Shown: piece after piece, positions 3,380 through 28,666 of the stretch | How positions within the stretch are numbered: position 1 is the first letter of the stretch | Layout of the letters: each line of letters opens with the position of its first letter | Source of the DNA: an uncultured Methanosarcinales archaeon | Lineage (GTDB): Archaea > Nanobdellota > Nanobdellia > Woesearchaeales > JAHJBD01 | DNA length: 64,000 nucleotides | NCBI GenBank assembly: GCA_964534665.1 | Contig: CAZHRT010000001.1 | Coordinates: forward strand, 76,037 to 140,036 | Direction: 5' to 3' | Position numbers and translations under genes: made by a program | The notes under the pieces: generated by a model | Database searches by the model: none | What the model saw: only the letters and a program-made list of their open reading frames with translations | Told to the model about the DNA's origin: nothing

Positions 3380-3843
3380 TATACTCTCCTCCCTCTTTTT
3401 CCACCTTTTTTTCTACAACCATCATGAGGCATAGGTGTAACATCCTCAATTATTCCAATTCTCAAACCCATTCTTGAAAGTGCTCGAATTGCTGCTTGAG
3501 CTCCTGGACCAGGACTTGCAGGACCATTATGTCCACCTGGTGCTTTAATCTTTACATGAATTCCTGTGATTCCATGTTCTTTAGAAGCTTCGCCTGCTTT
3601 TTTTGCTGCAATCATTGCAGCTGTAGGAGAACTTTCCATTCTATCTTGCTTAACAACCATTCCACCTGATGCTAAAGCAATAGTTTCAGTTCCAGTAATA
3701 TCAGTAATATGAATTATTGTATTATTATAACTAGAATAAATATGTGCAACACCCCAAATCAAAGGTTGATTTCTTCTAACCGGCCTACTAATAGGTTTAC
3801 TAACGGGCCTACTAACAGGTTTACTAACAGGTTTATTTTCCAT
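3379..3843 (-). CDS. rps11: 30S ribosomal protein S11 (uS11) with N-terminal KPVS/RPVS tandem peptide repeat
   Basis: [37 protein letters not shown]... classic uS11. N-terminus [19 protein letters not shown] is encoded by a 12-nt tandem DNA repeat. Confidence 0.9.
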
Positions 3844-4615
3844 CTTCTTTTACCTTATCTTTTTTCTTATCATCTTTAGGTGCTTCGTCTTTTTTATCTT
3901 CTTTAGCAACCTTTTCTTCTTTAACAGGAGCATCTTCATTTTTATCAGTAGACTCTTTCTTAGGTTTTGTTTCTTTTTTATCTTTTTTAGGTGCTTTTTC
4001 TTTTTTATCTTCCTTAGCAACCTTTTCTTCTTTAACAGGAGCATCTTCGTTTTTATCAGTAGACTCTTTCTTAGGTTTTGTTTCTTTCTTAACTTCTACT
4101 TCAGGTTGAGCCCTTTCAGGATGATCTAAACTTGATAATTTTGAAGCTGGCCTAAATTTAATTGCTGCTTCTTCTTCAACTGTTACAAGATAAGAAGGGA
4201 TAGTCATTGGTTGTTCACCAATATAAATATGTTTATGTGTAATAAATTGTCTTGCTTGTTTCATTGATCTTGCTAGGTTTTTCTTAAAAACTAATGTTTG
4301 TAATCTTCTACCTAAAATTTCTTTAGTAGTTATTGACAAAATATCTTCGATTTTTCCGCCTTGTTCAAGCAAACCAAGAGAATTTACTTTAATTAGCAAT
4401 TGTTGCCTTTCAATCTCAGACTGTTTTGTTTGTTCTCTAATAACTCTCTTTATCTGAGCAAATAAACTTTTTAAGAAAGACTCCATCTTCCAAATTTCTT
4501 TTTTATTCTTAAGACCATAATCTCTAACAAAGGTCTTTTCAGTATCAATTCTTTCCTTTTGCCAAGGATGTGATGGTGTTGTATACTTCTTTCTTTTTTT
4601 TCTTGGATCGCCCAT
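3833..4615 (-). CDS. rps4: 30S ribosomal protein S4 (uS4) with duplicated K/E-rich C-terminal extension
   Basis: N-terminal [23 protein letters not shown] and S4 RNA-binding domain. C-terminal about 90 aa is low-complexity lysine/glutamate-rich with an exact 37-aa internal duplication. Confidence 0.9.
3862..4085. repeat. Tandem direct repeat, period 111 bp x2, inside rps4 3' end
   Basis: cttttcttctttaacaggagcatcttc... recurs at 3911 and 4022 (offset 111). Encodes [30 protein letters not shown] twice. Confidence 0.8.
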
Positions 4616-4625
4616 ATTAATTCAC

Positions 4626-5084
4626 TTACTTTTTCTTTTTAACTCCTAATGAAAGTTTACCTTTATTTTTTCTAAAATTAGATTTTGTTCTCTGACCCCT
4701 AACAGGTAATTTTGACATATGTCTAACACCTTTATAGGTTCTAATTTTCTTTAATTGTTTAATATCGTTATCACGTACATAAGAAACATCAGCTGAACTT
4801 AAATGCATATCTTCTCCTGTCTCAGGATCATTCCTTCTATTTAGCATCCAAACCGGAGCCCCAAGTTTTTGAGGATCTTTAATAAATTCTTCAATTTTCT
4901 TAACTTCAGCATCTGACAAATCTCCAGATTTTTTACTAACATCAAGACCTAAAGTATTACAAATAAGATTTCCAAACATAAAACCAACACCTTTAACCTT
5001 TTTTAATCCAATACCAATTGGCCTATTTCCATCAAGGTCGGTGCCCATTATACGAACAATGTGTTTAAATTCTGTTTCAACCAT
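4626..5084 (-). CDS. rps13: 30S ribosomal protein S13 (uS13)
   Basis: MVETEFKHIVRIMGTDLDGNRPIGIGLKKVKGVG typical uS13 N-terminus. Confidence 0.9.
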   Translation of the reverse strand: MVETEFKHIVRIMGTDLDGNRPIGIGLKKVKGVGFMFGNLICNTLGLDVSKKSGDLSDAEVKKIEEFIKDPQKLGAPVWMLNRRNDPETGEDMHLSSADVSYVRDNDIKQLKKIRTYKGVRHMSKLPVRGQRTKSNFRKNKGKLSLGVKKKK

Positions 5085-5222
5085 TTTAATTATTAATCCT
5101 AGAATATGAACCCTAGGAACGCCGTTTTGACTCGGGCTAATAGAATTAAGAAACTGAAGTCTGTTTATAAAGGTTGTGGTAAACGATAGATTTATAAGTT
5201 ATTTTTCAACTCTTGAGATTAT

Positions 5223-5350
5223 GGTGGCGATAGTATAACTTGGCTAGTACCCAGGACTGTGGACCAAGCTTTCGGGCAGGATAGATATCCTGGAGTCCGG
5301 GAAGATAGAAAATTTATTCTATCTCGGCAATTCAAATCCCGGTCGCCACC
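5223..5350 (+). tRNA. tRNA-His (anticodon GTG) with two introns (anticodon loop and T-arm)
   Basis: G(-1) GTGGCGA TA GTAT..GTAC C CAGGA CTGTGG[intron]A TCCTG GAGT CCGGG[intron AAGATAG...GGCAA]TTCAAAT CCCGG TCGCCAC C. G-1:C73 pair and GUG anticodon are His hallmarks. TTTATAA box about 25 nt upstream. Confidence 0.7.
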
Positions 5351-6051
5351 CTTCTTTTCATTATGTACCTTTCTAATAATTCTTTTTTATGATTTATAGC
5401 TATATATCGAATAACAAACTCACGAAAAAAGGTAATATTCTTAGAAGATAAACTAAATTCTGTAACACACCCTCTGCTATTGAAAGTATTTCCAACAAAC
5501 ACATTTTGTTTTTCTCTGGTTATGGAACTAACACCACACTTCAAGAAATTCTTAATACTCTCTTCTAATTTAAATAATCTTCTCCTGCTATGTACCCTTA
5601 TACAACATTGAGGATATTTTGGCCTCTTAATCCTCACATCACCGTCTCCATCAATTACTCCTGCCAAATATGAACCAAATAATGCAGAGTTCTTCAAAAT
5701 CCAATCCGGTGGATGAACTTGCTTAAAATCTATTTTTAATTTGCAAAATAATTTTAATAAATTTTTGCATCCAAACTTATAATCATATCTCAAAAATCCT
5801 TTTTTATCAGTTAATTTAAACAAACAGCCTTTTAAACCAAAGATCTTTTGCGTAATATTTCTAAATTTATCCTGCATCGAAAGTGATTTTTTCCCAACTC
5901 CTAAAACAACAAAATATCTTTTTCTATTAATGGACTGCACATGTTGCACTTTGAAATAACCATCACTCTGAACAACACCTACCCAATAAGCAAAATCAGG
6001 GCTATTAACGCATCTTTCATAGATTTCTTGATTTAATATCTTTGAATTCAT
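5332..6051 (-). CDS. LAGLIDADG-family homing endonuclease-like protein (two motifs, single-chain type), free-standing
   Basis: Motif 1 FAYWVGVVQSDGYF and motif 2 YLAGVIDGDGDV both keep the catalytic Asp. 3' end overlaps tRNA-His by 19 nt on the opposite strand. Confidence 0.75.
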   Translation of the reverse strand: MNSKILNQEIYERCVNSPDFAYWVGVVQSDGYFKVQHVQSINRKRYFVVLGVGKKSLSMQDKFRNITQKIFGLKGCLFKLTDKKGFLRYDYKFGCKNLLKLFCKLKIDFKQVHPPDWILKNSALFGSYLAGVIDGDGDVRIKRPKYPQCCIRVHSRRRLFKLEESIKNFLKCGVSSITREKQNVFVGNTFNSRGCVTEFSLSSKNITFFREFVIRYIAINHKKELLERYIMKRRVATGI

Positions 6052-6169
6052 TTTGCATTACAATGATCATCCAGATTAGATCTAAATAAATGATTTTCGC
6101 CTCAGCAAAAATAATAATTAAGTAGTGTAATCAATATTTAATGGTAATGTAAAAAAATTAGAAAATGGT

Positions 6170-6718
6170 TCAAGCGTTTTGAAAGGCTCGGTCCCCATCC
6201 TCTTTTACCCCACCTTTTTTCTCTAAAACTTTACTAACAACATAAGGTATAGTAAAAGCAATAACATAAACCAAACTAACAATAATTGGATTATGACTAA
6301 CTTCATTAATTCTAATTGTTCTATTAAGATGATTAGCAAAATTAACCATAAAATATACATTAACTAAAGCAAGTGAAGGTATAAAAACTCCTGCAACAAT
6401 ATGTTCTTTTCTTTCTAATTCTTTTAAATCATCAATTATTACAATAAACAAAAAACCAAAAGTCAATGCAATTACCGAGATAATCCCATACAAGAAAATA
6501 GCATGAAAAACCAATAAAAATGGAACCAATACAACAGAAACAATCAAATTACCTATAATCGCCACAATCAAAACAAACCAATAAATAAACTCGTCCAATA
6601 ATTTAACCATATGATGTTTTTTTTCTTGTGCAGATTGAAATATATTATTTGCTTTAATTAAATCTTCTCTAGACCAACCTTTTGAGCCTAATTTTGAATA
6701 AATACCTTCATTCATCAT
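6170..6718 (-). CDS. Small integral membrane protein (about 4 TM helices), hypothetical
   Basis: Hydrophobic stretches WFVLIVAIIGNLIVSVVLVPFLLVF, IISVIALTFGFLFIVII, IVSLVYVIAFTIPYVV. Start overlaps upstream gene by 11 nt. Confidence 0.5.
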   Translation of the reverse strand: MMNEGIYSKLGSKGWSREDLIKANNIFQSAQEKKHHMVKLLDEFIYWFVLIVAIIGNLIVSVVLVPFLLVFHAIFLYGIISVIALTFGFLFIVIIDDLKELERKEHIVAGVFIPSLALVNVYFMVNFANHLNRTIRINEVSHNPIIVSLVYVIAFTIPYVVSKVLEKKGGVKEDGDRAFQNA

Positions 6719-8391: not shown

Positions 8392-8776
8392 TTATAAAGT
8401 GAGTAGGTCAGATAAGCCACCTTCTGTTAAGGTCCTTAATGATAGTCATTTTCAGCTATCGATGACCCCCTTAGCATTTAACTTAGCGTCATCCTGACTT
8501 GCACAAACCAGGGCTATCCGTTTCATCGTTTCCTTTGGTTAATGTCAACGGATTACCTCATCCCTGTCACCAGGAACTTCACCGCATCATTCCAAGCCCA
8601 AAGGCCGTGTCGTTTCTGAGATGTTGCCTTGAGTTTCCCCAACTCACTTCCGTGAGTGATTGCTCCACCTCATTTTTGGAGTTTAACCAAAAACAAAGGT
8701 TTCAGTGGGTGGACTTTCCTCAGCAATGCCTAAACATCACCGTCAGCTAAGCCTGACCATACCCAACATATAGGAG
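8392..8776 (-). ncRNA. rnpB: RNase P RNA (archaeal type A-like), approximate ends
   Basis: Minus strand contains P4 5' strand GAGGAAAGUCC (plus 8711-8721) and CR-V ACAGAAGGUGGCUUA (plus 8413-8427). GGUCAG/CUGACC terminal pairing. Region is locally GC-richer and all overlapping ORFs look spurious. Confidence 0.75.
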
Positions 8777-28472: not shown

Positions 28473-28666
28473 TACGGCAGCCGGGACTTTCGACAGTTGG
28501 ATATACAACGTATATCCTAGCTTAGAATCTCTTGCAAGATTTTTGGGCTGTTCTGATTTGAACCCGGGTCCCAAGCTCTTTCCACGAAAGTGGAAAGCCC
28601 AAAAGCTTTGCTTCTCGTGTGGGAAGCTCAGATCATAGCCACTAGACCACTGCCGTATAAATAATT
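28473..28666 (-). tRNA. tRNA with two introns (anticodon-loop and T-loop); tentatively Gly(CCC), identity uncertain
   Basis: Minus strand ACGGCAG TG GTC TAGTGGCTAT GAT C TGAGC TTCCCA[intron about 42 nt]GCTTG GGAC CCGGG TTCAAAT[intron about 70 nt]CCCGG CTGCCGT A. 7-bp acceptor and 5-bp T-stem are perfect only if the about 70-nt insert is removed. Confidence 0.55.

Follow-up and report, generated by a model that had tools for sequence, protein, structure and literature searches.

The DNA analysed here is a 64,000-nt stretch of an archaeal contig (CAZHRT010000001.1), called the window in what follows, with positions counted from its first letter. It contains a tRNA-His gene with two introns and, overlapping the 3′ end of this gene on the opposite strand, a free-standing gene for a two-domain LAGLIDADG endonuclease. 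The comparison of this locus with counterparts in related genomes (loci designated by L and a number) and with the other members of the enzyme family points to a homing-endonuclease cassette that would target the T-arm of the tRNA gene and travel with a protective intron, a reading to which we assign a probability of about 0.55.

According to this proposal, the enzyme would be a present or recent homing endonuclease, and its target would lie around nucleotides 53/54, in the T-arm DNA of a tRNA-His gene that is not interrupted. A 24-bp candidate target, with the candidate site CTGGAGCCCGGG|TTCAAATCCCGGTC, is found in the L089 locus. A double-strand break in the T-arm of the uninterrupted gene would be repaired from a donor allele sharing homology mainly on the 5′ side, and the repair would copy a single block made up of a 29-nt mini-intron, a new 3′ exon followed by its trailer, and the enzyme gene, in antisense, with its promoter. 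The old 3′ exon would be displaced downstream, where it would decay and be absorbed into the reading frame of the neighbour gene. The carrier allele would be immune because the intron splits the recognition site, and the tRNA would still work, as host EndA would excise the intron. The cassette would then be a counterpart, with a bulge-helix-bulge (BHB) intron, of the so-called collaborative or trans homing, in which a free-standing endonuclease and an intron lacking an open reading frame (ORF) share one site. The other intron of the gene, at position 37/38, would be independent of the cassette.

The tRNA-His gene and its two introns

The tRNA-His gene, with anticodon GUG and G-1, occupies positions 5223–5350 of the forward strand. 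No tRNA was called in the window by default ARAGORN (bacterial mode), and Rfam gave nothing in 5100–6200 and only one tRNA plus the RNase P RNA in the whole window. The deletion of both inserts yielded a 75-nt sequence that ARAGORN identified as tRNA-His(GTG), with a perfect 7-bp acceptor stem, the G-1:C73 pair, normal D- and T-arms and the loop CUGUGGA. When the second insert alone was deleted, tRNA-His with a 24-nt anticodon-loop intron was called; the removal of intron 2 was needed before ARAGORN made any tRNA call. A preliminary description of this DNA had considered that a different, intron-free tRNA fold might emerge here, and this was not borne out, tRNA-His being called only after intron removal.

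The limits of exons 1 and 2 were set by in-silico splicing and by alignment to the intron-less gene of L089. Exon 1 (5223–5262, G-1 to G37) comprises the 5′ strand of the acceptor, the D-arm, the 5′ strand of the anticodon stem and the anticodon GTG; for this exon, ARAGORN was used as well. Exon 2 (5287–5301, A38 to G53) comprises the 3′ strand of the anticodon stem, the variable region and the 5′ strand of the T-stem. Exon 3 (5331–5350) provides the T-loop, the 3′ strands of the T-stem and acceptor, and C73; it completes the acceptor stem, is identical to its L089 equivalent in 20/20 positions, and would be the functional "replacement" 3′ segment. Intron 1 (5263–5286, 24 nt) is at the canonical 37/38 position. 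Intron 2 (5302–5330, 29 nt) is at the non-canonical 53/54 position, i.e. the boundary between the T-stem 5′ strand and the T-loop, and would be the left end of the inserted block.

The two introns were examined for BHB structure, defined as two 3-nt bulges around a 4-bp helix, with the exon/intron junction located after the second bulge nucleotide on each strand. Intron 1 forms a canonical hBHBh′ motif, with a central helix CUGU:AUAG paired in 4/4 positions, bulges GG|A and AU|A, and a 6-bp outer helix. Intron 2 forms a relaxed, HBh′-like motif, with a central helix UCCG:CGGC paired in 3/4 positions (one U·C mismatch), bulges GG|A and AA|U, and an 8-bp inner hairpin that is also present in the unconstrained fold. 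Across loci, covariation with exon nucleotides 48–51 is seen in the central helix of the 53/54 intron (UCCG:CGGA, CCCG:CGGG, CUCG:CGAG).

The strongest evidence for the introns is comparative, as the tRNA-His gene of L089 lacks exactly those two inserts. L089 is the ortholog from the closest relative found, in which ribosomal protein S13 is 80% identical to that of the window. The promoter, the exons (71/75 positions identical) and the trailer align with L089, and the two inserts appear as clean gaps. The TATA box TTTATAAG (5191–5198, forward strand, read directly 24 nt before G-1) is kept in L089. The trailer CTTCTTTT (5351–5359, forward strand) is also common to both and marks the right edge of the homology before the sequence specific to the endonuclease gene, as the homology extends about 8 nt beyond C73 and then ends. 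The intron-less L089 gene scores 56.9 bits in Rfam and carries an uninterrupted ATCCTGGAGCCCGGGTTCAAATCCCGGTCGCCACCCTACTTTTT. The two inserts fit archaeal BHB introns, predicted to be spliced, as had been proposed in the preliminary description (~24 nt at 37/38 and ~29 nt between T-stem and T-loop).

The LAGLIDADG enzyme

The enzyme gene (5332–6051, reverse strand) encodes 239 amino acids and overlaps the 3′ end of tRNA-His by 19 nt (5332–5350), as correctly described earlier. Its final ~8 codons and TGA stop lie antisense to the tRNA trailer and exon 3, and the stop itself is antisense to the T-loop TTCAAAT. A putative promoter with B recognition element and TATA box (BRE/TATA, CGAAAAT-CATTTATTTAG; 6083–6099, reverse strand) was read 32–48 nt upstream of the ATG.

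Pfam matched LAGLIDADG_1 (PF00961) on this protein with 23.9 bits (cut-off, 23.1), so that the possibility, contemplated earlier, that the ORF would lack the LAGLIDADG fold in a profile search was not borne out. Among 45 family members, LAGLIDADG_3 (PF14528) was matched by 37/45 and LAGLIDADG_1 (PF00961) by 30/45. The first motif is AYWVGVVQSDG (D30, G31) and the second is YLAGVIDGDGD (D134, D136, G137). In the alignment of 45 homologs, D30/G31 and D134/D136/G137 were invariant, both catalytic Asp included, in agreement with the earlier claim of two intact motifs. The AlphaFold2 model, with a predicted local distance difference test (pLDDT) score of 95.6 and a predicted template modelling (pTM) score of 0.92, contains two repeats, each with a helix followed by 4 strands, arranged as two tandem alpha-beta-beta-alpha-beta-beta-alpha domains that form a beta-saddle. 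The top Foldseek matches, with probability 1.0, were I-DmoI/E-DreI, PI-PfuI, I-OnuI, I-SceI and bI3 maturase, the latter being the best by a hair's breadth. The family profile matched I-DmoI (E-DreI) at 5e-6, plus I-AniI and PI-PfuI, the sequence identity of the window enzyme to I-DmoI being ~17%. Therefore, considering the Pfam match, the invariant motif residues, the structural model with its Foldseek matches and the family profile, the gene encodes an intact, monomeric two-domain LAGLIDADG enzyme.

The proposed inserted block and the relic of the original tRNA 3′ segment

Beyond the enzyme gene, at 6169–6207 of the forward strand, there is a non-functional relic of the original tRNA-His 3′ segment (TTCAA..GCTCGG TCCCCAT C CTCTTTT), as judged from local alignment and from its position relative to L089. 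The relic reads TTCAA..GCTCGGTCCCCATCCTCTTTT, and the functional segment at 5331–5359 reads TTCAAATCCCGGTCGCCACCCTTCTTTT. In a gapped local alignment with 5339–5357, the core of the relic was identical in 16/19 positions, a score reached by 0/200 shuffles. In L089, the stop codon of the neighbour gene abuts the tRNA 3′ end, and the window relic occupies that same place beyond the enzyme gene. The neighbour gene (6170–6718, reverse strand) encodes a 182-aa membrane protein that is homologous to the L089 protein up to residue 163; the 19 residues beyond that point and the TGA stop (6170–6172) are read from the relic in antisense, the stop being antisense to the relic T-loop TTCAA.

Because a decayed second copy of the tRNA 3′ end lies beyond the enzyme gene, and considering the alignment to L089, we infer that a block of ~867 nt (5302–6168), comprising mini-intron, replacement 3′ exon, trailer, antisense enzyme gene and promoter region, sits exactly between nucleotide 53 and the old nucleotide 54 of tRNA-His. 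No integrase was found in 5302–6168, where the LAGLIDADG gene is the only ORF of at least 60 aa wholly inside.

Relics beyond the enzyme gene were also found in L001, in L004 (identical but for one mismatch) and in L062 (tRNA-Arg). In L004 the relic starts at A58; in the other two loci, as in the window, it starts at T54. Ungapped searches had found relics in L004 and L025 only, and those of the window, L001 and L062 emerged from gapped alignment with shuffles; by the latter method, no significant relic was found in the other 21 convergent loci. Concerning the co-directional loci, 5′ relics occur only in L008 (fragment of a foreign allele) and L025 (full duplicate).

These two loci have features of their own. 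L008 is a mirror-image case, with a perfect 16–17-nt tRNA-His 5′ fragment (~2900–2916, G-1 to D-loop) upstream of the enzyme gene; the fragment is identical to the tRNA-His 5′ end of L015, not to that of L008's own gene, and L015 has a 26-nt D-loop intron right there. In L025, two complete tRNA-Pro(GGG) genes (2844–2932 and 3705–3810) flank the enzyme gene, one with a 13-nt anticodon-loop intron and the other with a 17-nt T-loop intron. As to the window relic, at 6169–6186 it has TTCAA plus GCGTTTTGAAAG ahead of the T-stem 3′ strand. The ending ..TGAAAG| is the signature of the 59/60 introns of L006, L007 and the window tRNA-Gly, and the original window allele may have carried a tiny T-loop intron.

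The relic bears directly on another explanation, also raised in the preliminary description, namely that the locus is the remnant of a larger intron. A single BHB intron of ~870 nt at 53/54 would have held the enzyme gene, with the 3′ exon from 6169 on, and an internal duplication of the 3′ exon would have come later. The relic does lie beyond the ORF at the position so predicted, which places the block inside the original tRNA at 53/54, and archaeal LAGLIDADG genes are classically intron-borne (PMC6125680). That part of the claim stands; the remainder is very unlikely, as the ORF and the tRNA are on opposite strands, BHB pairing is lacking at the distal junction, L062 has the same duplication without an intron, 0/71 family loci have the enzyme gene inside a tRNA intron bounded only by exons, and an extra, precise duplication step would be needed in every lineage. 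The classical intron-encoded arrangement is not found in the window either, where the enzyme ORF lies past exon 3 and on the other strand, the intron being 29 nt long. A group I intron or other ribozyme enclosing the ORF was ruled out with Rfam, as neither Intron_gpI nor any other ribozyme was matched in 5100–6200 (E ≤ 10) or in the whole window (gathering score).

Enzyme-free alleles in related genomes

The search for empty-site alleles, recommended in the preliminary description, was successful. Presence/absence polymorphism at the conserved locus, recognized by synteny or by a tRNA-His gene adjacent to S13, was found with L089/L091, L081–83, L097 and L098, and such empty-site alleles are what a mobile homing endonuclease predicts. 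L089/L091 (S13, 80% identity) have neither the enzyme gene nor either intron. The syntenic L081–83 loci (S13, 56–60% identity to the window) have no enzyme gene, and their tRNA-His has only a 14–15-nt intron at 37/38. L097 and L098 have enzyme-free, intron-less tRNA-His genes. In L001, also syntenic with the window, the enzyme gene is present, with identities of 56% for the enzyme, 53% for S13 and 37–47% for other neighbours. It is to be noted that the enzyme gene and the 53/54 intron occur together in the window and L001, and are both absent from L089 and L081–83, while the 37/38 intron varies independently of the enzyme gene. The distribution of the enzyme gene is patchy, because L001, which has the gene, is more distant from the window than the enzyme-free L081–83.

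The possibility that the enzyme-bearing alleles share a special "type A" T-arm (CCGGG-TTCAAAT-CCCGG), the entire tRNA having been co-converted with the gene, was considered and ruled out, since the enzyme-free L089 has the same T-arm and a 20/20 identical exon 3.

Two other loci deserve separate mention. In L096, a 362-aa LAGLIDADG-like ORF (1306–2394) is located beside S13, where tRNA-His would be expected, and no tRNA was detected; this ORF was not counted as a family member, as it is only distantly related (hhalign probability, 92%). In L090 (1–190, from the metagenome-assembled genome (MAG) GCA_018823065.1), S13 and the 5′ part of tRNA-His are the same as in L089, and past position ~67 there is an unrelated GC-rich sequence with a 9-bp hairpin, CCGGCCCCATCCTCATCCTATGAGGATGG, which shares CGGTCCC..CCATCCTC with the window relic. 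The 3′ end of the L090 tRNA-His may be a misassembly or another insertion.

The enzyme family and its RNA-gene partners

A profile search against 1.84 billion cluster representatives gave 126 family clusters at E ≤ 1e-30 and 179 at E ≤ 1e-10, with generic LAGLIDADG matches only beyond that point, so that the family has a sharp edge. The members are free-standing, and nearly all have 200–250 aa (typically ~230); given this size, they are not inteins. In species-representative genomes, 73 family loci were found, 71 of them distinct, in MAGs of the Woese-, Nano-, Aenigmat-, Micr- and Iainarchaeota types and in a few other bins. Nearly all of the 73 are intact, with disrupted copies in L039 and L066.

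The RNA-gene context of the family was studied with our own intron-tolerant scan anchored to the T-arm and acceptor, in which 53/54 and T-loop inserts were enumerated and validated by ARAGORN -i, combined with Rfam. A tRNA or 5S rRNA gene was found within 60 nt of the enzyme ORF in 48/71 loci (chance, ~1.5%), and a stable-RNA gene within 300 nt in 60/71. In 43 of the 48, the RNA gene is at the 3′ end of the enzyme ORF, 28 being convergent (usually overlapping) and 15 co-directional. The normal state of this DPANN family is thus free-standing and beside a stable-RNA gene. The enzyme had been described as free-standing, intact and tied to tRNA genes, and so it is; its position next to an intron-rich tRNA had also been presented as an oddity, and in this respect the description needs correction, because the window gene is one member of a large family with the same usual arrangement.

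In a neighbour-joining tree of the enzymes, the clades track the partner RNA, with a large tRNA-His clade, a tRNA-Arg(TCG) clade and smaller Gly, Pro, Trp and 5S rRNA groups. Several MAGs have two paralogs at different RNA genes, e.g. His+Arg or His+5S. The neighbouring 5S rRNA genes are convergent and 0–5 nt away (L021, 3647–3762; L032, 767–884; L033, 3653–3771; L053, 714–829; L066, 3570–3706), and the enzyme copy of L066 has an internal stop. The earlier suggestion that tRNA or rRNA genes are targeted is supported by the paralogs at other tRNAs and at 5S rRNA genes; inside rRNA introns, no relative was found. The sole rRNA-operon case is L078 (3001–3351, Parcubacteria MAG), a distant homolog with 27% identity in the 23S–5S rRNA spacer of a bacterium of the candidate phyla radiation. 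In L004, an archaeal signal recognition particle RNA gene (3439–3713, reverse strand) comes just past the relic tRNA end, so that the enzyme gene is between two stable-RNA genes.

Another feature of many family loci is the conserved motif CACTGGACA, located on the enzyme strand, often in tandem, ~13 nt upstream of the BRE/TATA-like box and 50–240 nt upstream of the enzyme start; at least 19 loci have it, from both the His and the Arg clades (L001, 3837–3846; L062, 2894–2903; also L005–L007, L009–L016, L052, L055, L063–L065 and L069). The motif is absent from the window. Relic tRNA 3′ segments come directly past it in L001, L062, L064 and L065, and it may be an operator or the cassette end. The BRE/TATA orientation suggests that the TGTCCAGTG motif is placed upstream of the endonuclease promoter; it was also considered as a tRNA D-arm relic, a split-tRNA leader or a micro-ORF, and none of these fits.

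Another explanation is domestication, also mentioned in the preliminary description. The enzyme could be a domesticated LAGLIDADG protein with a vertically inherited host function at stable-RNA genes, such as a pre-tRNA maturase or chaperone, a regulator, or a factor for recombination or gene conversion. Its conservation across a deep split matches that of S13; besides, it is fixed in the window's species, it persists, for the most part intact, in several DPANN phyla whose genomes are of ~1 Mb, its best Foldseek match is, marginally, a maturase, and the CACTGGACA motif is conserved upstream of the promoter. Nevertheless, domestication is quite unlikely. The patchy distribution argues against it, as the closest relatives lack the gene and show no visible replacement for it. 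The two catalytic Asp do not vary among the aligned homologs, and maturases often lose them. The partners include intron-less tRNAs and 5S rRNA, hence no common RNA substrate. Finally, there are insertion scars and partial gene duplications, and some copies are disrupted.

Association of the 53/54 intron with the enzyme gene

A subclade of the tRNA-His clade, formed by the window, L001, L004, L005, L006, L007, L011 and L016, shows the convergent arrangement with a 53/54 intron in 8/8 loci. The 53/54 position and the intron architecture recur in 12 further enzyme-adjacent tRNAs, and the 53/54 inserts span six tRNA species (His, Pro, Gly, Cys, Leu and Arg). The shared architecture consists of A, a hairpin, the complement of exon nucleotides 48–51, and then AA, with bulges GG|A and AA|U. 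Inserts at 53/54 were present in 13/58 tRNAs within 300 nt of a family member versus 0/36 others from the same or gene-free loci (p = 0.001, uncorrected). For any T-arm insert, the figures were 24/58 near a family member versus 3/25 (p = 0.007). All these association statistics ignore shared ancestry, a first point against the proposed cassette.

Other points also weigh against it. With tRNA-His alone, the association of the 53/54 intron with the enzyme gene was 8/22 versus 0/5, which is not significant (p = 0.14). Eight enzyme-adjacent tRNA-His genes have no T-arm intron (L008, L012, L014, L018, L054, L059, L060/61), and L062 has a flanking duplication without any intron, so that the intron is not obligatory for coexistence with the enzyme gene. 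There are T-loop (59/60) introns away from any family member, in L100, in the window tRNA-Gly(CCC) and in the tRNA-Ser of L007. Two-sided homing does not classically leave flanking duplications. The enzyme gene is present in all 23 contigs of the window's species, which come from ENA, JGI and Logan samples, with no within-species polymorphism, and its conservation between the window and L001 equals that of S13 (56% versus 53%), which fits long vertical inheritance under selection. Viral contigs are essentially devoid of the family, and the search for a viral or plasmid vector in IMG/VR gave one weak match only.

Some of these data are what would be expected if a selfish gene merely landed in the spacer beside stable-RNA genes and had its target at or close to the end of the RNA gene, in which case the T-arm introns would be unrelated to it and there would be no co-mobility. 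Many family members indeed abut intron-less tRNAs or 5S rRNA genes, T-loop introns exist without a nearby family member, the test restricted to tRNA-His fails to reach significance, and disrupted tRNA genes are known for DPANN lineages (PMC5829648). We nevertheless consider this explanation unlikely: the 53/54 intron and the enzyme gene are co-present or co-absent in four syntenic lineages, the subclade mentioned above is uniform for the intron, 53/54 inserts were found near the gene and not elsewhere, and the relic 3′ segments begin at nucleotide 54, the exact intron site.

Going beyond the cassette of the window, it is possible, if doubtful, that the free-standing LAGLIDADG family creates and spreads non-canonical BHB introns of tRNA genes, and perhaps also partial or split tRNA genes. 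Each lineage of the family would cut one stable-RNA gene in a structural arm (T-arm at 53/54 or 59/60, D-loop at 16/17), and the break would be repaired by a cassette of mini-intron and replacement exon, the intron acting from then on as immunity.

Some observations on T-arm sequences and introns are recorded here. The window tRNA-Gly(CCC) gene (28473–28657, reverse strand) has several introns, with an anticodon-region insert and a ~70-nt 59/60 intron ending in ..CGAAAG|T. The T-arm of this gene, CCGGG-TTCAAAT-CCCGG, is the same as in tRNA-His, and there is no LAGLIDADG gene nearby. No uninterrupted copy of the 17-nt T-arm CCGGGTTCAAATCCCGG was found in the 64-kb window, where this tRNA-Gly, interrupted at 59/60, is the only other tRNA with that T-arm; this lack of an intact copy weakly favours the proposed homing cassette. 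In L006 (2925–3090) and L007 (3677–3868), tRNA-His has three introns each, at 37/38, 53/54 and 59/60. In the 59/60 intron of these loci, the T-stem is the outer helix and UUCA:UGAA the central helix, a geometry that mirrors that of the 37/38 intron.

Genomic setting

The source of the window is a low-GC archaeon of DPANN type, and the nearest named relatives of the neighbouring genes are from MAGs of "Nanoarchaeota" and "Woesearchaeota". The locus is flanked by the genes of ribosomal proteins S4 and S13 (3833–5084, reverse strand), and the gene of the archaeal RNase P RNA (8403–8762, reverse strand) is near. An intron-containing tRNA is also present in the surroundings.

Significance and comparison with known systems

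The questions addressed are the origin of the non-canonical introns of archaeal tRNA genes and the richness of DPANN and Thermoproteales in disrupted tRNA genes. The locus offers a candidate agent, an intact and widespread endonuclease family anchored to tRNA and 5S rRNA genes, and filled and empty alleles that differ by one definable block; it thus makes the origin of non-canonical tRNA introns directly testable. Cleavage of the intron-less T-arm by the enzyme would make this the first example of collaborative homing in which the intron is protein-spliced, and would yield compact new LAGLIDADG scaffolds specific for tRNA genes. Without such cleavage, a conserved DPANN family linked to stable-RNA genes would still be of interest. 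The broader proposal, if true, would give a mechanism for the "transposition" of tRNA introns and direct support for tRNA gene disruption as an arms race with mobile DNA.

Integrases integrate at attB sites in the 3′ half of tRNA genes, and the element supplies a replacement 3′ end. The tRNA-targeting integrative elements resemble the window locus in that the insert is bordered by a direct duplication of the tRNA 3′ end, the proximal copy of which preserves gene function. The difference is that the ~867-nt insert of the window has the LAGLIDADG gene as its only ORF, without integrase, and is far smaller than any known integrative element. Free-standing homing endonucleases also occur in phage tRNA clusters, such as SegB of T4 and the F-Tfl enzymes of T5-like phages. 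These are, as in the window, intron-less endonuclease genes among tRNA genes, with conserved tRNA DNA as the target; in contrast, they are GIY-YIG or HNH enzymes of phage genomes, and are not known to overlap the tRNA, to be accompanied by introns or to go with duplicated exons.

In archaea, LAGLIDADG genes have been described in rRNA introns, inteins and group I introns (PMC6125680). The window enzyme shares with the archaeal intron-encoded enzymes (I-DmoI, I-PorI, those of rRNA BHB introns) the fold, the two-motif monomer and an archaeal stable-RNA host gene, and the insertion would be made harmless in the same way, by a BHB intron removed by EndA. On the other hand, the window ORF is outside the intron of 29 nt and lies past the 3′ exon on the other strand, and the host is a tRNA gene (or a 5S rRNA gene in the family) rather than a 16S/23S rRNA gene. 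In the searchable literature, which omits most subscription journals, we found no description of a LAGLIDADG family that is free-standing and borders archaeal tRNA or 5S genes.

Genes with several tRNA introns or with introns at non-canonical positions have been described in Thermoproteales and DPANN, together with their dependence on a broad-specificity EndA (PMC5829648), and there is a report of "transposing" tRNA introns that names no agent (PMC10714607). Like those of the window and its relatives, they are BHB introns outside 37/38, several per gene, and at the same position in different tRNAs; what is different here is the co-localization of a specific protein family. No endonuclease or other mobility agent linked to non-canonical archaeal tRNA introns is reported in the searchable literature.

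Collaborative or trans homing has been described for group I introns of phages (PMC3984707). There, the introns are self-splicing, the enzymes are EndoVII-like or HNH, and cleavage has been shown experimentally, whereas the window cassette would combine an archaeal chromosome, a protein-spliced BHB intron, a LAGLIDADG enzyme and a replacement 3′ exon. In both cases, a free-standing endonuclease gene is located beside a gene with an ORF-less intron, an arrangement that recurs in 12 further loci of the family, and the intron and the endonuclease gene are either co-present or co-absent. In the window, the intron may likewise be at the cleavage site, for which the start of the relic 3′ segments at nucleotide 54 in the window, L001 and L062 is indirect evidence.

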